A stretch of DNA of 63,620 nt, filler included, from Chrysochromulina tobinii (lineage: Eukaryota): the NCBI GenBank assembly GCA_001275005.1. It is 5 parts of 5 records of this genome, joined end to end, with 100 filler letters (N's around TTAATTAATTAA, not from the genome) between each part and the next. Parts side by side here need not be neighbours in the genome. Positions count along the whole stretch, not along the records: positions 41,490 to 61,051 come from JWZX01001124.1; 4 more parts are not named here. One strand, given 5' to 3'. Shown piece by piece: positions 1 to 63,620 of the stretch; the stretch's first letter is position 1, and every line of letters begins with the position of its first letter. A program made the position numbers and the translations under genes. A model generated the notes under the pieces. The model was not told the origin of the DNA. It searched no databases and worked only from the letters and a program-made list of their open reading frames with translations.

Positions 1-2729
1 AGCTGGATGGCGTGCGGCTCGGCGGCGGCCTGCCGAACACGACAGCGCCGCTCATCTCGATGATGCGCACGTGGTGCGGGGCAGCGCCGCCCTCGCCCTC
101 GCCGCCACTGCCGCCTTCGCCGCCCTCGCCGCCTCCGCCCTCGTTATTACCATATCCAACTGGGAGAGCACCGTTGCCGTCTCCGCCCTCGCTGCCGCCC
201 TCGCCTCCACCGCCTCCACCTTCACCGCCGCCGCCCTCGCCCTTGCCAGGTGGGTGCCCGGCTAGTTGGTACTTGGTGCCCGGCGACTGCCCCTATGTCG
301 GCACAATCAACGGTTATGGCGGTGGCCAGGTTGTAAGCCAAATGGCATGCGCTCAGTATTGCACTACACAGAGAGCAAATGGCTGCACGAGCTTTGAATG
401 GTCGGCATCAACGTCGCGATGCAATTTGAACAAGTGCAGCGCGGCGGAGACACAACAACAACCGACTTATTTAGACTTTGTGGTTTGTTTTCCGTCTTTG
501 CCGCCCTCGCCGCCCACGCCGCCCTCGCCGCCCTCGCCGCCGTGCGCCGTCAACGGCGCATACACCTTCACCGGGGCGGCGACCTCCTACTTGAGGGCCA
601 CGTCGCGCACCGGAATCGTGGGCGGGGGGCTCGGCTTCACGCTCTGCGCGTGGGTCTACCGCACGCGGACAGGCTCTTCGGGGGATCGCTTCATCGATTT
701 CGGCGACGGTGCAATGGCAGACAATGTCCTTGTGCAGTTTTGGAGCCCAATGAGGTACTTGGTGTTCCATGGGAATGCCGATTCCGGACTCTCTGCAAGC
801 CCAGCGCCGTTCCCTGCAAACGTGTGGACTCACGTCGCGGTCGTCCATTCGCGTGCGAGCCTCGCCGACACCTACGGGCCCGCCCAGATCTACTGGAATG
901 GTTTGAGCGTCGCGACGAGCGCGTCGATGCGCTTCCCGCTGCCGGTGAGCCGCTCCAACCTCTACGTGGGCAAGAGCGCTTGGTCTGCCGATCCGATGTT
1001 CACGGGCCAGATGAAGGACCTGCTGGTGTGGGACGTCGCCCTCAGCCCGGCGCAGCTGGATGGCGTGCGGCTCGGCGGCGGCCTGCCGAACACGACAGCG
1101 CCGCTCATCTCGATGATGCGCACGTGGTGCGGGGCAGCGCCACCACCACCGCCACCGTCGCCGCCACCACCCTCATGGCCCCCGTCGCCGCCGCCGTCGC
1201 CGTCGCCGCCGCCATATCCTCATACGGCGGTGACCGCGTCGGTGAGCAACACTGTCGATCTGACCAGTGCTCTCGCCAACACAGCCACCAGCCACATTGT
1301 CCTTGCCCCCGGCACTTATTACCTCAGCGCTGAGCTCAGCATCACAAGGAGCGTCTACATCGAGGCGGCAGTGGCAGGTTCGGCCGTGCTGCACGCACAA
1401 GCCAGCTACTCGAGTCAGCGTCGGGTGCTACTTATCAATCCGGGGTCGTCGGACGTGGTGCAACTAATCGGACTCAACATCACGGGGGGTTACTTCGCGA
1501 CATGGAATGCGTCAAGTTACCCGTCCAATATCCGGAATGGGGACCCTTCAGGGGGAGGGGGAGGGGGAGGGGGAGTCCTTATTCAAGGTGGCACTGCCAC
1601 ATTCACCAACGTGAATATTTATAGCAATCAAGCTGGCTATCAAGGGGGAGGTGGAGTCCTTATCCAAGGTGGGACGACCCGATTCACCAACGTGAACATC
1701 GACAGCAATCGAGCTGATGAGGGAACCGGGGGAGGTGGAGTCCGCATCACTAGCGGTGACGTGCAGATCATGCACACCAGCATCTACTTCAATGGCCCCA
1801 AAAATTATTATTGTTGCGGTGAATGGCATCAAGGCGGTGGCATCTTGATTCATGGCGGCAATGTACAGTTCACGCAGACCGACATCTACTCCAACTCAGC
1901 CGGTTATAATTATGATGGAGGTGGAGTCAGCATTCGAGGTGGCAACACCACATTCACGAACGTAATCATTCGCAATAATGGAGCTGGCAATGGCAGGGGA
2001 GGTGGCGTCTCCATCTCTAGTGGCACCGTGACGTTCACGGAGACCAATATTTACTCCAACTCATGCGAATCTAATGGCGGCGGTGTCTCGGTCAGTGGTG
2101 GTCACGTCACTTGCTCCTCGTGCACCATTTTCTCCAACACAGCTGGCAACGTTGGAGGTGGAGTCAGCCTTGAAGGTGGCACTACGACATTCATCAACGT
2201 CACCATTTCCAACAATCAAGCTGGAAATGGTGACGTGCGCTTCCCCCGTCAAGGAGGTGGCGTCTTTATCTCAGGCTCAAGCACAGTCGCCGCGCTATTG
2301 TCCAGCGGCATCCACTCAAACACAGCTTCGGGTGGGGGTGGGCCTAATGTCTATGTCTCAGGAGCTAGCGTCTGCTCATACGCAATGAACCTCACCGGCC
2401 TCTCTGGAACAGTCTCAACTTGCTTGGCACCCCCTCCTTCGCCGCCTCCGCCCTCGCCTCCTCGAATGTTGTACACCGAAAATGGCTGCCTGTGCGCAAA
2501 TACGTGCCAGTTCGCCAATGACACCCTCTGCGACGATGGAGGTCCGCAGTCCGAATACGACGCGTGCGGATTTGGGTATGACTGTACCGACTGCGGTGTG
2601 AGATGTTTGCCACCACCGAGGCCGCCTCGACCGCCCCGTCCCTCGCCGCCGCCACCTAGCCCGCCACCACCTAGCCCGCCACCTTCACCACCACCGTCAC
2701 CTCCGCCGCCGTCGCCGCCGCCGTTGCCA

Positions 2730-2760
<31 letters not shown>

Positions 2761-5700
2761 GTTTGCCAACACCGCACTCTCCTCCCCCGCCCTCGCCGCC
2801 GCCGCCCTCGCCCACGCTCATGCCGTCCCCACCACCACCGTCGCCGCCTACGCCCTCGCTATGCACAGAAACGTGCGACTACGCCTCTGATGGTGACTGC
2901 GACGACGGCGGATCCGGGTCCGAGTATACTTCCTGCAGCCTTGGCACCGACTGCACCGACTGCGGCCCTCGAATGCCGACGCTCATGCCGCCCCCACCAC
3001 CACCACCGACCTCACCACCTCCACCGTCACCTCCTCCATCGCCACCTCCTCCATTGCCCCCACCTTCGCCCCCGCCGCCCTCACCGCCGCCCACCCCACC
3101 CGGCGGGTCGAGTGTGCTCGTCGTCTCGGCCACCTTCACCATCGCAGGCGATCCCTCCGACTTCACCGGCGCCCTCCAAGTGCAGTTCCGCACCGCCCTT
3201 GCCAGTCTGCTGGGCGTGAACATTGCCGGCATCACCATCCGCGTCACCGCGGGCAGTACCATCATTCAGACCACCATTGTGGTGCCGTCGCTCGACTCCT
3301 CTCAGACGGCTGTCTCGGTGCTCCAAGGTAACACAACCCAGCTCTCCGCCAACCTCGGCGTGACCATCACCTCCGTCAGCAGCGTGAGTACGAAGTCGCA
3401 GGTCATCGTGGCGCCCTCGCCTCCACCTCCTTCGCCTCCGCCTCCGTCACCGCCACCATCGGCTCCGCCCTCGCCTCCGCCCTCGCCTCCGCCCTCGCCT
3501 CCGCCCTCGCCTCCGCCCTCGCCGCCGCCCTCGCCGCCTCCCTCACCCCCACCTCCATCACCCCCACCTCCATCACCTCCACCATCTCCTCCGCCCTCGC
3601 CTCCGCCCTCGCCGCCGCCTTCGCCCCCACCTCCATCACCGCCTCCATCGCCGCCGCCCTCGCCGCCACCATCCCCACCACCTTCGCCTCCGCCCTCACC
3701 GCCACCATCTCCACCGCCCTCGCCACCACCCTCGCCGCCGCCGCCCTCGCCGCCGCCGCCGTCTCCGCCACCATCTCCGCCCCCACCATCTCCGCCGCCG
3801 CCCTCACCGCCACCATCTCCTCCTCCTCCTTCGCCACCGCCACCGTCACCACCGCCTTCACCGCCACCGCCATCTCCACCACCTCCGTCACCACCTCCGC
3901 CCTCGCCGCCACCCTCGCCGCCCCCTTCTCCGCCTCCATCACCACCGCCGTCACCGCCACCACCATCGCCACCGCCTCCATCGCCACCGCCACCCTCACC
4001 ACCACCCTCTCCGCCACCTCCATCGCCACCGCCGCCCTCGCCCCCACCCCCTTCGCCTCCTCCACCATCACCTCCTCCGCCATCACCTCCGCCAAGAGCA
4101 CCGCCGCCCCCTTCGCGGCCAGTGTTCCAGGAATCCGCCATTGCTGCCAACTTGCAAGCCATCGCTGGCGACGTCGACCTCGGGTCCTTGACGGGCGTTC
4201 AGTTCGAGCAGGTCGGGGACAAGGTCACCCTGGGCATCTTTGCGACGGTGACAGGTACGCTGCTCAACTTTCAGGTCGAAGTTGACATTGATCCGAGCTT
4301 CTTGCTCGCTGATACGGGCAGTGAATCTATTGGCTTCCCTAGCACAGTCGTGACCCTCAACTCACCTCCACGGCTCGTTCGAATCCTTGCTAACGAGCCT
4401 CGCTCGACGTATTCTGGTGCGAATATTCATCTTGCAACTGTGACGCTCAGTGTGGTCGGTGGCGGCGTCACGCTGATCACGGGTACTATAGTTGAGCTCA
4501 TCTCGATGTCTGTTGGCTCGCAAATTCGTGTGTCTGACAGAGCGATCGACGCTGGCACTGGGTATGCGGTGCTCGCCTTGGCTAGCTCGAGACGCCGTCT
4601 GTTCTTGCCATCCCAGACGCGCAGTCCCGAGATTGCGTTAGCCGCCCGCAACCGCCGCAGCCTTTCTCACGCCAACCACCGTCAGTCGTGCACTCCGTGC
4701 GCCGTAAATGGTACGGGCGTGCGTGGTGACGTGAACGGCGACTGCAAACTGACGTCTTTTGATGTCTTCGAGGCCTCTCAACTGTTCCTTCAGCGCGAAG
4801 CTCGAGGCCTTGCCGGAGAGGTGCCATCCGCACAGAGCAGCTTGTGCTATTGGCGACAGAAGCAGCTCGATCTTACTCTCGATGGCATCTTCTCGCTGGC
4901 GGATGTGCAATATCTCATGTACTCGATTGCCGGCAAGTACCGTTTCGCGGATGGTTTCGGGGCTCTCTGCTCCAGGCTTGCCCCAGAGCCGGGCGCCGTT
5001 CAGGACATTGTCATCAGCGTCAATATCTTTGACGACGACGGCAGCCCCAGCACCAACTTCACCACTGTCCGCATGGAAATTGCACGACCGCCAGGTGCCA
5101 TTGCAAACGTGTCCCAAGGCGTCAATCTGGGCTTCACGCCGGCAGGTAACTGGCTCACGTCGGCCACAGGTGACCCGAATGGCAACTTTGCGGTCACGAT
5201 TCGCCCATCAAACATGAATTGGTCACCCGAAACCCAGGTCTCCGTGGCCTTCATGGTGGAAACGACTGACTACTTTGGCGGCTCAGACTTGCAGCGAAAT
5301 GTGCCCTTCAAGGGCTCGAGCGAGCCGCTGTATGCACAATTCGGGTTCTCATTCGACCCGATTGCTAAATTTCCAGGTTGCCTGCCACCGCCGTCGCCAC
5401 CACCACCGAGCCCGCCACCGAGCCCCCCACCGTCGCCGCCCCCACCGTCGCCACCACCGTCACCGCCGCCCTCGCCGCCGCCCTCGCCGCCGCCCTCACC
5501 GCCGCCCTCGCCACCACCCACGCCACCACCCTCGCCGCCGCCGTCGCCGCCGCCGTCGCCGCCGCCGTCGCCGCCACCGTCGCCTCATCCCTTGCCGCCT
5601 CCACCATCTCCGCCGCTTCCTTCTCCTCCGCCGTCACCACCTCCGTCTCCACCTCCCTCACCTCCACCGTCGCCGCCACCCTCGCCCCCACCCTCGCCGC

Positions 5701-6704
5701 CCCCACCGTCTCCACCGTCTCCATCGCCTCCACCACCCTCTCCGCCGCCTCCATCGCCACCGCCATCGCCGCCACCACCACCGCCCTCTCCACCGCCGCC
5801 CTTGCCGCCGGCGATGAGCGTCGTCAGATTCACCCTCGAGCTCGCCGGCGACGTCTCCTCGTTCACCCCGAGCGTGCAGGCCCAGATACAGGTTGTGATC
5901 GCGGCTCTGGCGGGCGTCGACCCATCGGCGGTGGACGTGACGATATCGCCGGGCAGCGTCATCATCGACGTGCGCATCCAGACGTACGCGGGGACGGCGG
6001 CCTTGGTGCAGTCGACGATTGCCAGCGCGACGAGCAGCCCGAGCAGCGCAACGCTCATGCTCGCAAACGTCACCGGCGTCTCAATCACCGTGCTCGCGGT
6101 CGTGACGCCACCCTTCGTCGCAAACATCTCGCCGCCACCACCGCGTTCACCATCGCCGCCCACAACCATGCCACCCAGTTCGACTGATGCGCTGGCTGCA
6201 TCGGCAGTCGAGACGAGCGGCTCGATGGGAATCATCATCGGCGCCGTGGTTGGTGTGATTGCTGTCGTTGGCGCCTGCATCGGTGTCGCCATCGTGCTGC
6301 GCTGCAAACGTAGTCGGCGGCCCAAGCAAAGGGGGAGTGTGCAGGACCCTTCTCCGGGGATCGTCATCGAGCTCATGGCTTCACCGACAGCTTCGCCCCT
6401 CGATAGTGGCCAAAGGAATCATTTGCAACACGGCCGCCCATTCGAGTCCCCGACACCCATGAAGTCGCCTCCGCCTCCTTCCGACGACGTGCCTCCTCCT
6501 CCTCCTGAAGCGTCTCCGTACCTGACAACGGCCGACAACTCGAAAGTCGAAGCGAAGCTCGAGCGTGCCCGCGTGGCCAATCTCAAGCGTGTACACGCCG
6601 CCGTGCGAGAACGCCAGTCGTCCCGCTTTACCACCGCCGTCGAGGGAGACCAACGCTCACTTGCTTCGGACCCGCAAGGAAATCCTCCGGCCGATCGGAT
6701 TTGA
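1..6704 (+). CDS. Giant proline-rich (SPPP extensin-like) type I membrane protein, 5'-truncated. Order: PAN/apple-like, LamG/ConA-like, pectin-lyase-like beta-helix, two Cys-rich CDDGG modules, two SEA-like modules (flanking cohesin-like and dockerin-like modules), TM helix
   Basis: Frame is open from the window edge, >2230 aa. Motifs: CAQYC...CTSFEW...CNL (PAN-like); FTLCAWV...WTHVAVV...LYVGKS...FTGQMKDLLVWDVALS (LamG-3); GGGV..GG...F.N..I..N repeats; GSTII/GSVII (SEA-type); hydrophobic GIIIGAVVGVIAVVGACIGVAIVL near 6228-6299 followed by basic residues. Confidence 0.85.
3411..4115 (+). repeat. Coding low-complexity array of Ser-Pro3-4 units (further blocks at about 2610-3100 and 5385-5810)
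   Basis: Degenerate 12-15 nt units such as ccctcgcctccg translate as SPPP(P). Confidence 0.95.
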
Positions 6705-43852: not shown

Positions 43853-44596
43853 CACCTTTCTACTATCCGCCCGAATGGACACGAGCGTGGCAGGACACCT
43901 ACTGTGGCACGCGCTGATCCGCGGAGCGGAAGAACTTGGAAAGTTGACGCTGTTCGTAAAAGCAACGACAGCTGTGCAGCTGTAACCTGTACGGTGATCG
44001 GTCGTTACGCTCTCCGTCTGGCCGCGGGCCGGAGTGCCGCGTGTGCCGTGCGGAGACGTGCGATCGGCGTCCCGGCATGTGGTACCGCTACCGGTAATCG
44101 AATAGCCTAAGAGCTTTTTTTCTTCTTTCGCAAAGACGGGAGAAAGTCAACAAAAGATTTCAAGTCTGAGTGGGCCGAATGTCCCGTCCGATGGAGTCGA
44201 TGATTCTCGCTCATCTCCGACTGCGTCTGCGACGTTCTGCGCGACTCCCGGTTCTGCAGCGCTCTGTCCGACCCGCGCCGTGTCGCGTGTCTGGGCCGAT
44301 TCTGGGCTTGACCCAAAGGGGTAGGGGGAGGTATTCTTTCTGGATTCACACATTATCCCCACCACCTGATTTTGAACTCAGTGTGGCTCGGCCCGCCGGT
44401 CTCTCTCCGCTCAAGCCGACGTTAGCACGCGGGGTTTAACGGGGTCCCAAGACCGAGCGACAACGTGGCCACGCGTGGTCGGAATGCTCCTGCGCATAGG
44501 ATGCATCCCCTGAGGAGTCCACGCACGCAGAGGAGGCGTGCCGTGGCGTCACCTCGCCAGCGCCAATCCACGTGGCACACGCCTTCAGCAGCTGGC

Positions 44597-45535: not shown

Positions 45536-47255
45536 ATGCTCCTAATTCTCCTGAGCATGCTTGACACTGTACAGCCAGCCAGCCTCGTGAGACCACGCTA
45601 CGCAGTTTTTGGCGGTAGTGGCTTCATCGGTAGCCGTGTGTGCAAGGCACTTGTCGAGGCGGGCTGCTCCGTGGCCTCAATCTCTCGAACGGGCAAGTGT
45701 CCTGAATGGGCTGCCGAGGAGCCATGGAGCGCGCAGGTGAACTGGCTAGCAGCAGATATGCTCTCGCCGCCAGCGCAGCTAGCAGCCGAGCTTGGAGCCA
45801 TCGATGGAGCCGTTAGCTGCGTCGGCAACATGCGGCCCTCGCCAACGTGGCGGGACTTCTTCGGCCTCCACTGGGACTATGAATCGCTCACACGCGAGAA
45901 CGGCCTCGTCACGTGGCGCATCTGCGAGAGCGCGCGTGCCGCAGGGGCCTCGCGAATGGTAGTGCTCTCCGTCTCCTCGAGCAAGAAGTGGGCGTTCGGC
46001 GGCGCGTTGATGGGTTACATTGACGGCAAGTTGGAGGCGGAGGCTGCAGGCCGGTGCCTCTTCGGCGACGAACACGTCGCAGTGGTCGGCCCCTCCCTCG
46101 TCCTCGGTGGAGGCCGCTTTGCCGGCCTGCTGAGGCCGTACGCGGCCATCTGTGACAGCGCGCCCATCCGCGCGCAAACCAGGTTTTTCAAGGCCCTCAA
46201 GTCTGGCGCCAGCAGCGGTTACGCTCCGCAGGACACTGTGAATGAGGTCGCACTCACACCACCAGCAGCGGTCGATGCAGTCGCCCGTACCGTGTGCGCG
46301 TGCCTTCTCGAGACGATCCCAGCATCCCGCCTAGCCTCATTCAAGGAGCAGCAGCGCGCCGAAGACCAGATCCGCGACCTGCTCAAGGAGAGAGAGGCGG
46401 CGGGTGCTTGTGAGGAGATAGCGACAGAACGCTCAACAGAACGCGCGGACCCCGCCTATGGCCTCGTGCCACCACGGCGCCCCGGGCACATTCCCTCCAC
46501 TCTGACCCTGTGCTGGCTGCGAGTCATCGATCCCCGTCTTGGCAGATGACTTCATGTACGTCGACGGCACCGACCAGATCAACAGCGTTGCGGCCGATTC
46601 GGGAACTCTATCGGTACTCGCCGCGGCCGTCGCCGTTGTGCGCGAGCGCCGCGGGGCGGCTGCGGCCGGTGAGGTGCTCGGCACACTCCTCGGCCAGCCT
46701 GTCGACCTGAGATCCTCCAGCAGCAGCAGCAGCGGCAGCAGCAGAAGCACCACCTGCTCCTCCGCCAGCAGTCCCGGTAGCGTCGGATTGGAAGGCAGCA
46801 TTCTGTGGCAGCGGATGCCGCTTGACGACAAGCCAGCGGACGCGGCCAGCCTCGAGAACGATGCCTTCCGGGAGGCACTCATCCGTGATCCGAGGATGTG
46901 GCGCTCCTTTTCGCGCGCCGAGCTCCATCAGCTGGGCGTGCCAGCCGAGGTGCCCGAACAGACCTTCATCCGTGAACAGACCTTCATCCGTGAACAGACC
47001 CCTCCGGTGCATGCAAGTGCTCACCACGGCGCCACTCTCTCCCCACAGGTGCCCGAACAGACCTTCATCCGGGTCGAGGACGCCTATTACAAACCGAGCA
47101 CCGCGGCGGCGCAGTCGCCGAGCGCGTTTGGATCTCCGTACGAGGGAGCCCTTTTTGGGTACAAGCCGTTACTCTTCCCCTGGACGCCGGCAGCGGCACT
47201 TATTGGCTTCTTTGCCGGCGCCATCTTCTACGGGCCGCCGGTGCCGTCTGGGTAG
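45536..47255 (+). CDS. NAD(P)-dependent epimerase/dehydratase (atypical SDR); exons about 45536-46403, 46546-46949, 47049-47255
   Basis: AVFGGSGFIGSRVC, SISRTG, AVSCVG, GYIDGKLEAE. GT-AG intron 46404-46545 joins the two ORFs in frame; probable second intron 46950-47048. Confidence 0.8.
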
Positions 47256-47453: not shown

Positions 47454-50400
47454 ATGGCCGACCTCTACTCGCTGGGAGAAGAGCCGCAGCGCTGCCGCGT
47501 CGTAGCGTACCAGGCGGTGCCTCTCGTCGGTACAGCGAAAGGCGAGAAGGACGACCTATATATTACCCCCCAAAAGGTCGTCGTGCTTGGCCTCGGGGCT
47601 GAGGCGGGTGCTGTCGGCGGGGTGGCGACCGCCGACGGAAAGAACAGCGAGTTCCTCGTTGACGAGACGTACGGGCCGAATGTGCAGCCGCTCGACGTTG
47701 CGCAGAGCGTGGTGCCGCAGCTCACGCGCTCGGCCGCGCGCGGTGCCAACGGCTTGCTCTTCGTGCTCGGGGAGAGCGGCTCGGGCAAGACGGAGCTCAT
47801 GCACGGCACCGGCACTGCACCAGACTTCGCATCGGCCAGCGCGGCCGGCCCGTCGTCGGTGAAATGGGAGGGCCTCGTCGAGCGCGCGATCGACGAGATC
47901 TTTGAGGAGATCACGACGTACGAGGCGGCCAACCAGCAGGCAGCGCACGTGGTGCGCATGCAATTCCTCAACATCGTGGAGGAGCGTGTGCAGGACCTAC
48001 TGCAGCCCAACTGCCACGCGCACGACCTGAGCCTCGTCGAGCGCGCCGACGTCGGCACTGAGGTGCCTGGTGCCTATCAGGTCGAGCTGAGCAGTAAGGC
48101 GCAGGGCTTGCGCCTCTACCGCACCGCACGCGACGAGCTGCAGCGGCTCGAGCGCTATCACGGGGTCAACCGAGCAGCCTCGTGCTGCATGCTCACGATC
48201 TCGATCGTGCGCCGTGGCATGCCGCGCGCCGCGGGCGCAGTTCTCGGATCTGGTCTCCTTGCGCAGTTCTCGGATCTGGTCTTCGGCGCGGCCGGCGCGG
48301 CCGGCGTGGCCGGCAGCGAAGGCGCGATGCAGAGCGCGCTCACGATCGTCGAGCTGCCGGGCACCGAGCGGCTCGCGGAACCTCGGGATCAGCTCCACGT
48401 GTCCGAGTCCCCTTTTCTGCACCGATCGCTCCTGCAGTTCTCAGACCTGGTGCATGCACTTGCGAGCCGCTCCACGGCCGAGCACGTACCCTGGCGAGGC
48501 GGTAAGCTCACTTCCCTGCTTCACGGCAAGCTGGGTGTGAACGCGCTCACACTGAGTGTGGCGACGGTGCGCTGTGGGCAGCCAAAGTGCTCGGCAGCGA
48601 CGCTCGCGCTCGCGTCACGGATGCGCGACGTGCTGTGCTACCCGGTGCTCAACACGGCGGCCGCGCAGGGGCTGCTCACGATCTCCCGATCGGAGATCCT
48701 CGCTCTGAAAGAGGATCTCTCCCAGATGGTCGCCAAAGGTATCGAAACGCTCTCCCCCAGTCGGCCCCCGTCCGAGGCTGGGAGGGCGCAGCCTCCGCGC
48801 AAGAAGCTCGACCTGGTAGACACGCTCCAGAACCCGATCAAGATGGCCACGCCACGTGGCACGCAGCCGGCGCAGCCGGCGCAGCCGGCGACGAAGGCGA
48901 CACCGCCGAAGGAGGAGGAGGAGGAGCAGGGCGTGAGCGAGGACGAGGACGAGGACGAGGACTTTGATGGCGACCTTGAGGCGGAGAACGCGTACCTCAA
49001 GAGCAAGCTCGCCAAGTACAAGTCGAGGATGGCGGCGGCGGTGTCCAAGCCGACCCCCCCCCTCGACCCCCTCGTCCAGTCCAACCTCCAAGGCAAGCTG
49101 ATCCAGGCGGAGCTGCAGGCGGAGCAGCTCAGAGCGGCGCGTGCGGCCGCAGTCAAGGAGCGAGTGGAGCTGCAGAAGGAGTACGCGCGCTTGCTCGGCG
49201 AGATGGCCTCCCTGATGGCCTCCCTGATGACGTCTCTGATGAGCTCCCTGATGGCCTCCCTGATGAGCCCTCCTGATGGCCTCCCTGATTGCATGCAGGT
49301 ACACGCGCCTGCTGGGCGAGAAACAAGAGGTCGAGCGCCACCTCCTCGATGCGGAGCACGAGCGTCTTAAGGTGGCCAAGGCTCTCGTCGATCTGCAGGT
49401 GAGTCTCGTTAATGGCCTCTGATGGCCTCGGATGGCCTCTGATGGCCTCGGATGGCCTCTGATGGCCTCTGATGGCCTCTGACGCCCCACGTCTCGTCGA
49501 CCTGCAGGTCGAGGGCTCGGCCCAGTCGACCGTCACCGAGGAGCAGAAGATGGAGCTCGATCGGAAGATTCTGAGCTCCGAGGCGGAGAAGCATGCGCTC
49601 GCGCGCGAGATTGAGGGCTTCGCGCGCCAAGTGGCGCAGCTCGAGGACGACCTGAGGGTGTCCCAGGCGGAGAAGGAAGATTTGGTCCACGAGCTGCTTG
49701 CTGCGCGACAGTCTCTCGAGATGCAGCGGCAGCAGGGGATGGTCAGTGGCTCAAGACGAGTGCCTCTGAGTGCCTCTGAGTGCCCCTCTGAGTGCGCCGC
49801 CTGATGGCCTCTGATGGCATGTGATTGCTTCCCTCATCAGGCGCTCGTCTCGGACGCGCGCGAGCGCGATCTCGAGATTGTTCGCTCCGTCAAGGAGGCG
49901 GAGCATAAGGGCGCCCAGGTCGAGGCACAGGCGCAGGCGCTCGTGACGGCCCGTGCGGCCACCGAGGTGATCCGTCAGCAGCTGCATGCCGCCGAGAGCC
50001 GATCGACAAGTTTGGACGCGCAGGTGGCGGCACTGAAGCGGGACGCGGCGCTCGCGCGTGCCAAGCAGGAGGAGCTGCAGATGGCGGCACGCCGAGCGGC
50101 GGTGCAGCGTGAGCTCTTCGAGGTGAGTGTCGCCAAGGAGCGCGCTGAGCTGCTCTTGCAGCGGCAGCAGCTCAAGGATGAGTTGGCGGAGGGGCAGCGC
50201 CAAGTGCGCGACGAGGGGCTGCGCCAGGCGAGTCTCGTCAATTGCCTCTGATTGCCTCTGATTGCCTCTGATTGCCTCTGATTGCCTCTGATTGCCTCTG
50301 ATTGCCTCTGACGCCCCAAGTGCGCGACGAGGGGCTGCGCCAGGCCAAGGGCGCCGAGGAGCTGGCCAAGCAGCGCTTGGCCGAAGTGGTGAGCTGCCGC

Positions 50401-52186
50401 GCCGAGATCACACAGCTCAAGGATCAGCGTGCGGAACTTGAGATGCGCGTGAGCACGCTCGAGGTCGCGGTCGATGCGGGCGAGCAACAGCTTCAGGTGC
50501 GGCGAGTGCGAGCGACGTGTGCGGGCGACGTGTGCGAGCGACGTGTGCGAGTCTCGTCAATGGCCTCCGATGGCCTCGGGTGGCCTCGGGTGGCCTCTGA
50601 TGGGCTCTTATGGCCTCCTGCGGGCAAGAGTGATGGCCTCTGATTGCGTCGCTGATTGGCGTCTGATAACTTGTCGAGCTGCACAGGCCGCACACGAATT
50701 CTTCCGTCAGAGCCTTCGGGACGCTCTCGCAGTGCACTTTGAGGGAGGGTCGGAGGCCGACCAGCAGGCCGACCAGCAGGGAGCGGAGGGGCGACGGGAC
50801 ATTACCCAGACGCCCGCGATGGCGCTCCTCGCGGCGCTCGGGCGTGCATACGAGGAGCACGAGAACCACTTGCGCCAGCGATTCGACAGGCTTCAGAAAC
50901 GCCACTGGGCCGTCCTCGATCGCGCCAAGCAGGATGCAGCCCACGCGCTCACCATGGCGCGCCGAAGCAGCAAGGGTGGCGGCAAGGGCGGCGGCAAGGG
51001 CGGCGGAGCCGATGCGGGTGCGCCCGCCGATGAGCTCAGTGTACGCAACGGCGACGAGGCTGCCGCCCTTGCGGCGGAGGGGGCGAGCGCGGAGGAGGCT
51101 GAACGGAGTGCGGCGAGTGCGGAGGAGGCTGCGCTCTCGTCTCTCCAGGCAGAGGGCCGTGCTGTGCTCCAGTCGTATATTGAGGAGGCCGCGCAGTTGC
51201 GCACGGAGCGCGGCGCACTGCGAGGTGAGCTACAGACCGCAGCGGTCGCCTTCAAGGTGGCCTCCGTGAGTGCATCTCTGATTGCATGCTGATTGCCTCC
51301 CTCATCAGGTGAGCTACAGGCCGCAGCGATCGCCGCCAAGGTGGCCTCCACTAAGCTGGTAGAGGAGCGACTGGCGCTCAAGCGCGAGATCGAATCTGCG
51401 CGCGCCGAGGCTCGGCTGGCGAAGCAAGCCCTGAGGGAGGCAGGCGGCGAGAACGCGTCGCAGAAGCTGCAGTCCGCGGGCGACCTCCATCAGGAGATGC
51501 AGGAGTCGCTCATCCAGCGGCTCGACATGCTCAATGCCCAACGCGAGAAGGCGAGCGCCCTCAAGGCTCGCGAGCTTGAAGAGACGGGCTCGTCTATCGA
51601 AGAGGTGCGCGCGCTCCGTGCAGAGGCGGCGGCGCTCCGGGCAGAGCTTGACATTCGGCTGCGGGACGACCCGAAGACGCTGCAAATCCTGCGGCTCCAG
51701 CTGCGAGATTATTCGATCTCATGCTCGCAGCTCGAGCAGGAGCGCTCGCGCCTGATGCGACGCGCCACCGGCGCCGAGCAACAGCTCGAGTCGATGCAGG
51801 ATGCGATGTCGGACCATCTGACGCGCTACCAAAAGGAGATTTTACGTCTCAAGGCATTGCCGACGCCTGCATCGCCACGAAGCGGCGCCGGCGCGGGCCT
51901 GTCACTCCCCACCCCGAGTGCTGGCGGCCTACCGCGCAAGCTGCATGACGCAGTCGCTGCTGCTGGCGGCGAGGACACCGACGGCAGCGCGGAGGCGTTG
52001 GCACCATCGGCAGGTGGAGCACTGGCTGCACCAGCTGCACGTGCTCCACTCGGACCATTAGCCGATGGCGATGATGGTGAGTCTGCGAACGTGTATACCG
52101 CCGATCCTGCTCGCGCAGGTCCACAACAACCCGCCAAACCCCCAGGCGCACTGAAGCCCTTGACTCAAGTCCCCTGGAGGACTTAA
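47454..52186 (+). CDS. Degenerate kinesin motor domain plus CCDC78-like coiled coil; exons 47454-49180, 49299-49398, 49508-49741, 49841-50227, 50344-50496, 50687-51224, 51309-52186
   Basis: P-loop GESGSGKT, IVEERVQDLL, ELPGTERL, HVPWRGGKLTSLL; LLDAEHERLKVAKALVDLQVE resembles CCDC78/DUF4472. All six predicted introns (five GT-AG, one GC-AG) keep one open frame. Confidence 0.8.
49181..51308 (+). repeat. Six related introns containing TGATGGCCTC/TGATTGCCTC 10-mer microsatellites (49181-49298, 49399-49507, 49742-49840, 50228-50343, 50497-50686, 51225-51308)
   Basis: Tandem attgcctctg x7 at 50241-50310 and gatggcctc(t/g) at 49412-49480. Shared 5' motif GYGAGTCTCGTYAATKGCCTC and shared 3' motif TGATTGCYTCCCTCATCAG. 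Confidence 0.85.
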
Positions 52187-61051: not shown

Positions 61052-61151
61052 NNNNNNNNNNNNNNNNNNNNNNNNNNNNNNNNNNNNNNNNNNNNTTAAT
61101 TAATTAANNNNNNNNNNNNNNNNNNNNNNNNNNNNNNNNNNNNNNNNNNNN
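61052..61151. other. Artificial contig-joining spacer
   Basis: N44-TTAATTAATTAA-N44. Confidence 0.99.
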
Positions 61152-61800
61152 AGAGCAACCTGCTCGTGGCCATTGTGGGCAGCGCACAACAAGGCGGTCC
61201 AGCCGGCGTTGTTCTGAGCGCTCACGACGGCGCCCGCCTTGAGCAGCACGAGAGCAACCTGCTCGTGGCCATTTAGGGCAGCGCACATCAAGGCGGTCCC
61301 GCCGTCGTTGTTCTGAGCGCTCACGACGGTGCCCGCCTCGAGCAGCACGAGAGCAACCTGCTCGTGGCCATTTAGGGCAGCGCACATCAAGGCGGTCCAG
61401 CCGTCGTTGGTCTGAGCGCTCATGACGGCGCCCGCCTTGAGCAGGACTAGAATAACTTGCTCGTGGCCATTTTGGGCGGCAAACATGAGCGCTGTCCAAC
61501 CATTTTTCTCAGTTTCATCAACGCCTGCCCCCGCCTCGAGCAGGACGAGAGCAACCTGCTCGTGGCCATTGTGGGCAGCGTATATCAAGGCGGTCCATCC
61601 GTCGTTGTTCTGAGCGCTCACAACGGCGCCCGCCTCGAGCAGGACGAGAATAACCTGCTCGTGGCCTTTTTCGGCAGCTTTCATCAAGGCGGTCACGCCG
61701 GCGTTGTCATGAGCGCCCACGACGGCGCCCGCCTCGAGCAGGATGAGAGCGCAACGCTCGTGTCCAAAAGTGCTCGCCCGCATGAGCGGAGTGCCACCGT
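61152..61800 (-). repeat. 99-bp tandem repeats encoding near-identical ankyrin units
   Basis: agagcaacctgctcgtggccatt and variants recur every 99 nt (61152, 61251, 61350, 61449, 61548, 61647). Confidence 0.9.
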
Positions 61801-63620
61801 TGCAATCGGCGAGCGCCGCATCCGCCCCTCGAGTGAGGAGCAGCTGCACGATAGGCTCGGCGCCCTCCTCCGCGGCGAGGTAGAGCGCGGAGCAGCCCCC
61901 GGCGCTCTGCGCATTGAGCGTTGAGGCGGTTGAGGATGCCAGCAGCTTGACGACGGCCGCGAGTTGCTTGCGGCGGGACGCGACCATAAGCGCCGTGATC
62001 CTCCCTGCGTCCTGCGTGCGAGTGAGGGTCGCCAGGTCCCCCGTCGCGGCGGCGCGCAGCCGCACTGTGCGCCTGCACGCCTCGTCGGTGAACTCGTGGT
62101 CTGAGAGTGTCGGGAAGAAGAGGCGAACGACGGCGTGCTGCTTGGCGTTCCGTGCTGCATCTGCCGCGGACTGATTTTGCGTGTTCTGCTCCTCCTTGTC
62201 AGCCCCCTTTGCGACGAGCGCACGGCAGATGGCCACGTGCCCGCCCACGGCAGCGCGGTGGAGCGGCGTGTTGGCGCGCTCGTCTGCGACGAGCGGGTTG
62301 ACGCCCGCGTCGAGCAGCGCCTCGACGAGCGTCGCATCTCCCGCCCCTGCGGCGAGACGGAGGAGCGCACCCGCGCCGTCGGAGGCGACGACGAGCGCCT
62401 TGGTGCGCGGCAGGCCCTTCTTCTCCTTCCACCCCCCGATCTTGACGTCCACCGCGTCGCCCTCCACGCCTGCGACGACGGCCTGCTGCCAGATCTTGTC
62501 AAAGGCAAGCACGCGCTTGCCCACGACGAGCGCGTCGGCAGCCGCCAGCTTCCCCGCCTCGCGCGCCACCTCGCGCGCCACGCCCTTGGCTGCCTCGAGC
62601 GCCGTGGGCAGCCACGCGGCAGGCAGCCCCTTGCGCACGAGCGTGGCAAGCACGCGCAGCCGCCACGCCTCCTTGGCTGGCACGGCCGCCGCTTCGGCCG
62701 CCGGCAGCTGCGCCGCCTTGACGAACGCGTCGCCAAACGCCGCGCCACCCGCCTGCACGCCCATGAGAACGGCGTTCGTCCACCACACGCCCCACGCAAA
62801 CGACGGCAGCGGCACGCCGCCCTCGCCGATGGCGCGCATCGCATAGTATTCCTGGAAGGAGAGGTGGAAGGCCTGCATCTGCAGCGGCTTCGCCTCGAGC
62901 AGGCGCACGAGCGGCAGCCCGTCTCGCGCCACCAGGGCGCGCAGCTCGTCGGCCGCGCGCTGGGCGGCGGCCATGCCGATGCGCGCGCCGATGCGCGCGG
63001 TGGCGGCGCCGAGTTGTGCCTCGGTGATGATGCGCTGCTCGGCGGCGTGCGCCTCGAAGAAGGTGGCTTGCAGCAGCGCGCGCGCGTCGTCCGGCACGGC
63101 GGCGCCCGACCGTTGTTTGAGCATCGCGCCGGCCGCCACCTCGTACAGCTCGGCGGTGGTAGTCGGCATGTCGATGCCGACGCGCAGCTGCGCAATGGAG
63201 CACACCATCAAGAGCATGAGGGGGTTGGCGGTGACGCGGCGCCTCGTGCCCGCCTCGCCGCCGGCGTCGAGCGGCACCTTGTCGCGCAGGTAGGACTTGA
63301 GCGCGGACGCCCACTCGTCGCCGAGCCGCGTGGCGAGAAAGGTCTCCTGCTGCGCGTCGGTCAGCGGTGCGAGGGTCAGCCTGTGGAACCCGGCAAAGCC
63401 CGCCTCGTCCAGGCCGGCCGGGCGCGAGGTGCACAGGATCACAAAGCCCTTGGGCGCGAGCACCTCGGCAACGTGCTTCTCGATACGCGCCCGTTGGGCG
63501 CCCGCCTCGTCGAGCCCGTCGAGCAGCAGCAGCACGCGCCGCTCGTGCATCGCCGCGCGCAGCATCGCATAGTGCGGCGGCGCGCACATGAGCTTGAGGT
63601 CGGCGTCGACCCAATCGTTC
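61152..63620 (-). CDS. NACHT NTPase plus ankyrin repeats (NLR-like STAND protein), truncated at both ends
   Basis: Walker B VLLLLDGLDEAG, sensor ILCTSRP, NPLML, winged-helix FHLSFQEYYA; more than 10 ankyrin repeats G.TALM.AA.NGHEQV..LLEAGA. Confidence 0.9.

Follow-up and report, generated by a model that had tools for sequence, protein, structure and literature searches.

In this study, we examined a 63,620-nt stretch of DNA from Chrysochromulina tobinii (assembly GCA_001275005.1; the whole stretch is hereafter the window) together with loci from a metagenome scan, and found that duplication-flanked inserts are real, are spliced in a gene of the window, are widespread and are at least partly recent. 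Their anatomy is a duplication of host sequence plus a filler, two filler families recur (microsatellite-type arrays and a second type, the C module), and at one site an empty allele exists. Our explanation, to which we give even chances, is that many short introns consist of a 15-60 nt host duplication and a 20-200 nt filler common to other introns. Such introns would be born at staggered breaks or replication template switches, with part of another intron, often one close by, as the template for the filler, and selection would then act on the products.

Every array cluster in the 63.6-kb window falls within a kinesin-like gene, on the sense strand (Table 1). Removal of six introns yields a single open frame, with its ATG at 47454 and its end at 52186, and in the product a kinesin motor (PF00225) is joined to a coiled coil. 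An earlier note, made from the sequence alone, had described four of these introns as carrying a 16-41 nt copy of the adjoining exon; all four are present where it placed them, and introns 3 and 5 complete the set of six. The stretch is present in 18 of 21 listed runs, 6 of these RNA, and we aligned assembled contigs from four of them, three RNA and one DNA. Three lines of evidence support splicing, namely one RNA junction, contig-length arithmetic and a protein: in an RNA contig (X14 record 13) position 51222 is followed directly by 51307, which amounts to removal of intron 6; a 1109-nt RNA contig (X14 record 12) matches introns 1-4 spliced out, by length and offset arithmetic only; and P0001, from a 2015-nt contig of unstated type, equals the spliced product across introns 1-5. 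In protein alignment the orthologue P0002 is gap-free at junctions 1, 2, 3, 5 and 6, with residues 992-993 contiguous across the intron 6 junction, and has a 3-residue gap near junction 4. The neighbouring TruB gene has its best named match in Prymnesium parvum (53%), which points to a haptophyte host.

Table 1. Host gene and introns of the window, with the two copies of each duplication
Feature	Position	Strand	Anatomy	Duplication	Evidence
Host gene: kinesin-like protein, long coiled coil, six introns	47454..52186	+			spliced ORF, protein comparisons
Intron 1	49181..49298	+	GT donor from copy of next exon; 12-mer array; acceptor at TGCATGCAG	49181-49202 and 49299-49320; 22 nt, 3 mismatches	spliced in P0001
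Intron 2	49399..49507	+	donor GTGAGTCTCGT in cassette; 10-mer array; AG from copy of previous exon	49383-49398 and 49492-49507; 16 nt, 1 mismatch	spliced in P0001
Intron 3	49742..49840	+	array ending CCCTCATCAG	none recognisable	spliced in P0001
Intron 4	50228..50343	+	GC donor in cassette; pure TGATTGCCTC array; AG from copy of previous exon	50200-50227 and 50316-50343; 28 nt, 0 mismatches	spliced in P0001
Intron 5	50497..50686	+	degenerate array; start motif of introns 2 and 4 copied internally	none recognisable	spliced in P0001
Intron 6	51225..51308	+	GT donor from copy of next exon; short array ending CCCTCATCAG	51225-51265 and 51309-51349; 41 nt, 4 mismatches	RNA contig junction
Intron of upstream epimerase-like gene	46950..47048	+	copy of next exon, slipped repeats of the copy, then C module	23 nt, perfect	

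The duplications of the window are no assembly artefact, because contigs of DNA run X6, possibly the source sample itself, span the two copies of every repeat with unique flanks and because the intron 1 copy recurs in other assemblies: it is read through in 17 of 17 genomic-type proteins that reach it in the two nearest clusters, one of them 96% identical. The length of the intron 1 array varies among those relatives. Half-depth variants in the DNA run at 48977, 48992 and 49265-49272 suggest that the strain, diploid or mixed, has two alleles of that array. The proposal that the 0-4 mismatches between copies form an age series found no support: the four counts are statistically compatible with one shared rate (p = 0.31), no strain variant with a protein extending to the intron 1 junction lacks that intron, and 2 mismatches in 32 are already present in an insert that is still polymorphic. 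Across 96 duplications, mismatches between copies comprise 36 transitions and 45 transversions, a mix that hints that synthesis during insertion is error-prone.

To look further afield, we scanned a metagenome collection for two array units; 3 of its 64 parts yielded 134 stretches, equivalent to 127 loci and 668 kb. In these, 459 array clusters reduced to 327 unique ones and to 283 with full flanks, the window's own included; loci were thus fetched by array pattern, and repeats shorter than 13 nt were not scorable. A direct repeat of 13-60 nt, with a broad length distribution, brackets 115 of the 283 arrays (85 of 207 in contigs grouped as culture and 30 of 76 in others) as against 3 of 800 shuffled flank pairs. 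The earlier description of the duplications as long, variable and of both polarities is supported. Supply of one splice site by each duplication is not the general rule: among the 115 events 30 owe their donor to the duplication and 14 their acceptor, both sites lie within it in 23, and no exact GT/GC-AG register is found in 48. Array or splice-end sequence is included in 19 of the 115 repeats; among the 96 events that are not compound in this way, 51 restore an exact GT-AG register, compared with a mean of 8.5 when the same fillers are placed on random targets, and AGGT occurs within the duplication in 19 on the filler strand, against 6 on the opposite strand and 6.7 at random. In a codon model, exact removal outscores frameshifted removal at 21 of 22 scorable coding sites; 78 of the 115 sites were not callable (63 with a non-coding score, 15 ambiguous), probably because their flanks hold other introns. 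When 678 kb were scanned for repeats without regard to filler type, 192 events emerged, of which 87 have array filler, 33 have module filler and 72 have other filler, often reiterative, in a set that is noisy and includes coding repeats. The two filler families thus account for 120 of the 192, though in loci fetched by array pattern. Three full-acceptor inserts (L087:265, L062:615 and, on the - strand, L011 at about 9691 on that strand) have duplications that start with GA or GG rather than GT or GC, and to judge by their sequence these may be candidate non-canonical donors.

The second filler, the C module, is of branch-point/acceptor type and has no microsatellite. Across the 127 loci plus the window we found 82, with a YAG downstream in 76; a flanking repeat accompanies 45 of these 76, compared with 3 of 500 controls, and a site with GT or GC is restored in 31. 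Arrays and C modules are joined in some introns. The earlier note had the TGATKGCCTC cassette and the exon copy supply one site each in four introns of the kinesin-like gene; the core is not required, because the second module does the same. Fillers hold what we read as branch-point-like words (CTGAT, CTAAT, GCTCAC). In a hand-picked set, 9 of 13 acceptor-less C-module inserts are in frame. The intron of the upstream epimerase-like gene, which the earlier note did not list, belongs to this class; it lacks a microsatellite, and its C module runs GCATGCA..GCTCACCACGGCGC, pyrimidine tract, CAG. Two RNA contigs align only as far as 46947, beyond which 121 and 347 nt of their sequence continue unaligned. 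Another intron of that gene, 46410-46545, is skipped by an RNA contig and has neither duplication nor cassette.

The clearest evidence for gain comes from L029: it has a 78-nt module insert, bounded by GT and AG and bearing an exon copy of 31 nt, that is missing from the orthologous L033 (98.3% identity). The exon copy carries a base private to the L029 exon and the empty site of L033 has no intron remnant; because the copy shares the private base, this difference favours gain. It is the sole clean presence/absence case among six aligned pairs, and the insert, for which splicing is predicted only, is in frame without a stop. Together with the collinearity of P0002, this pair supports the earlier suggestion of intron gain rather than ancient position. 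We regard it as highly improbable that the introns are old, with duplications arising later at existing introns and empty alleles reflecting losses by recombination between repeats. Secondary expansions between repeats do occur (in L007:13157-13575, in L115 and in L065 compared with L017, units of duplication and filler have multiplied into tandem series of up to seven, for which unequal exchange between the repeats is the likely cause), the 19 compound repeats fit such a history, and intron 1 is fixed among the relatives seen; but at one site L033 is empty without remnant and the L029 copy bears an allele-specific base, and antisense and acceptor-less inserts of the same anatomy lie within coding sequence. 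Four array inserts are antisense in coding sequence, with spans of 57, 63, 69 and 78, and translate as a duplicated peptide plus insert (a fifth antisense call, of the 5' class, is outside this count). All four spans are divisible by three, for which chance gives 1 in 81. Because all are in frame, we infer that the mutational process is strand-blind and that selection acts as the filter.

As we envisage it, the process would begin with a staggered break or replication template switch, and the filler would be synthesised on a stretch of some intron already present, in many cases a neighbour. The filler would sometimes bring a donor or an acceptor, and the duplication would give the missing site, or both sites if it held AG|GT. 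Selection would likely retain those inserts that are removed precisely by splicing or that preserve the reading frame, and each new intron could then be a template for the next. The staggered-break or retro-type origin raised at the outset is supported, and we favour cis template copying at a staggered lesion because of the local resemblance of fillers, the end motif of introns 2 and 4, and an intron pair in L064. Introns 2 and 4 have in common their start and a rare end motif that occurs in only 2 of 283 arrays, and the two L064 introns, 350 nt apart, have a common filler and flanking homology (7 nt left, about 6 nt right), so that on sequence they look like donor and recipient. In a rare-11-mer test the best match lay within 4 kb for 21 of 202 arrays, against 3.1 expected (0 of 2000 permutations); this weighted test was designed after an unweighted k-mer locality test had not reached significance (246 and 111 of 2000 permutations). 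Neighbouring C modules have more non-consensus letters in common (0.42 vs 0.13; 3 of 5000 permutations), and microhomology averages about 1.2 nt, compared with 0.4, both at the 39 left and at the 24 right junctions. The two marks of templated repair or template switching, junctional microhomology on either side and filler resembling DNA close by, are thus seen, with modest effect sizes. Cis copying is weakened because a local best match is confined to those 21 of 202 arrays, because the preferred filler starts resemble an element with a defined end more than random template switching, because two families supply 120 of the 192 events (in loci fetched by array pattern), and because the microhomology is short and there is only one filled/empty pair. 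Later gene conversion could be the source of the local similarity; we infer instead that it dates from birth, that the template is DNA, and that cuts are made by host repair or replication and not by an element-encoded enzyme. No enzyme for insertion was identified in the sampled loci. More tentatively, and at somewhat less than even chances, we suggest a transposase-free, self-propagating mass intron gain, in which staggered lesions of 15-60 nt would receive, through host break repair or template switching, splice-signal fragments copied from introns nearby; introns would in this way seed introns in the same gene.

Long variable target-site duplications (TSDs) could also be left by target-primed reverse transcription, with a LINE- or Penelope-like enzyme inserting very short truncated RNA copies of the cassette (a tail repeat or micro-SINE), an origin that we consider rather unlikely. 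It would accommodate strand-blind insertion and the slipped repeats within fillers, and non-LTR elements are described with long variable duplications in the accessible text of PMC9977147. The pattern of non-LTR and Penelope-like insertions, a variable TSD with one fixed end and the other truncated, is seen here with a fixed end that is only approximate: arrays prefer to start at CTGAT (21 of 95), and C inserts start mostly within about 15 nt of GCATG, with the other end variably truncated. On the other hand, there is no common sequence past the acceptor ends (loose-end agreement about 0.4-0.6), there are several distinct ends, all coincident with splice sites, and local resemblance is unexpected for trans-acting retroposition. 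A crude regular-expression search for a reverse-transcriptase motif over about 0.73 Mb (about 1% of a genome, hence weak) gave two spurious matches only.

We judge it very unlikely that the inserts are non-autonomous introners of DNA or HUH (Replitron-like) type, which would hop locally and have a fixed end and a fuzzy one. Replitron-1 yields variable duplications and a fuzzy end according to the part of PMC10288648 available, one Replitron protein is reported in C. tobinii in an account seen in part, and a palindrome lies at the C-module start; but insertion sites have a flat composition with no target consensus and no RG target, the listed fillers display no terminal direct or inverted repeats, and the fillers are heterogeneous and only 20-200 nt long. 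None of the 25 longest of 37 inverted pairs brackets a window intron as terminal inverted repeats (TIRs), and a filler hairpin was not significant (z 0.9 to 1.5 for three of four, -1.1 for the fourth). Between 44000 and 52500 no hammerhead or other RNA family gave an Rfam match near threshold, and two viral-contig scans gave no match. The window also holds a short intergenic repeat at 44309-44383 (summed depth about 72,000 in DNA run X6 vs about 40 for single-copy sequence; one further copy in L036; no obvious target duplication) and, at 12-6704 and 61100-63589, long ORFs that contain low-complexity tracts rich in Pro and Ser as well as a tandem coding repeat of 99 nt.

The origin of most new spliceosomal introns is an old question, and current surveys credit transposons. 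Judging from the accessible portions of these reports, the TSDs that provide published introners with splice sites measure 3-9 nt, and those of marine Chrysochromulina 4 nt (Gozashti 2022, PMC9860276); a 2025 survey lists 0 introner families for C. tobinii and, for Emiliania, one small family whose direct repeats are 10 bp long (Gozashti 2025, PMC12130899); and among the introner-like elements (ILEs) of Polarella and Symbiodinium, the Polarella classes have fixed 3-8 nt TSDs (bioRxiv 10.1101/2020.10.14.339549). The inserts described here resemble these in forming repeated intron families, in drawing one or both sites from a duplication and in restoring the mRNA exactly, and introners are present in marine Chrysochromulina MAGs. 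They are introner-like in function, with many recent introns of common sequence (283 arrays and 82 C modules, with one filled/empty pair), yet they depart from introners in structure: similarity does not extend near both splice sites, one end being a locus-specific exon copy of 13-60 nt, and whereas published introners have a family-fixed 3-9 nt TSD, here, unlike in MITE-type introners, the duplication is variable, there are no TIRs and the filler is low-complexity. Existing introner searches would tend to overlook such introns, with one end a unique exon copy and the core low-complexity; as far as its accessible text goes, the 2022 pipeline removed low-complexity families (PMC9860276).

A literature search, with most subscription papers outside its coverage, gave no account of these motifs or this pattern; the sources consulted did not describe duplications of long, variable length around a low-complexity filler copied locally, whereas splice-site co-option from 3-9 bp TSDs is already known. 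Non-LTR/Penelope-like insertions (PMC9977147) and Replitron-1 of Chlamydomonas (PMC10288648) are alike, in the parts consulted, in their variable-length duplications with one defined and one variable end, but here no autonomous partner was found in the sampled loci, no target motif or terminal repeat was seen, and the products are introns. Tandem duplication (PMC3443670) and break-repair gain (PMC11282704) are, on the available text, established small-scale routes. Tandem AGGT duplication follows the same logic as our class with both sites in the duplication (23 of 115), whereas here a common filler lies between short copies and recurs at many loci. Staggered-break repair likewise leaves direct repeats flanking new introns, but with short repeats and unrelated fillers, in contrast to the long repeats, two intron-borne filler families and local resemblance seen here. 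Three textbook routes (AG|GT duplication, staggered-break filling and intron copying) appear here as one frequent process, and its mechanism is open to direct test, since some sites are polymorphic, products that failed or stayed in frame can be compared, and RNA data exist for a strain in culture.
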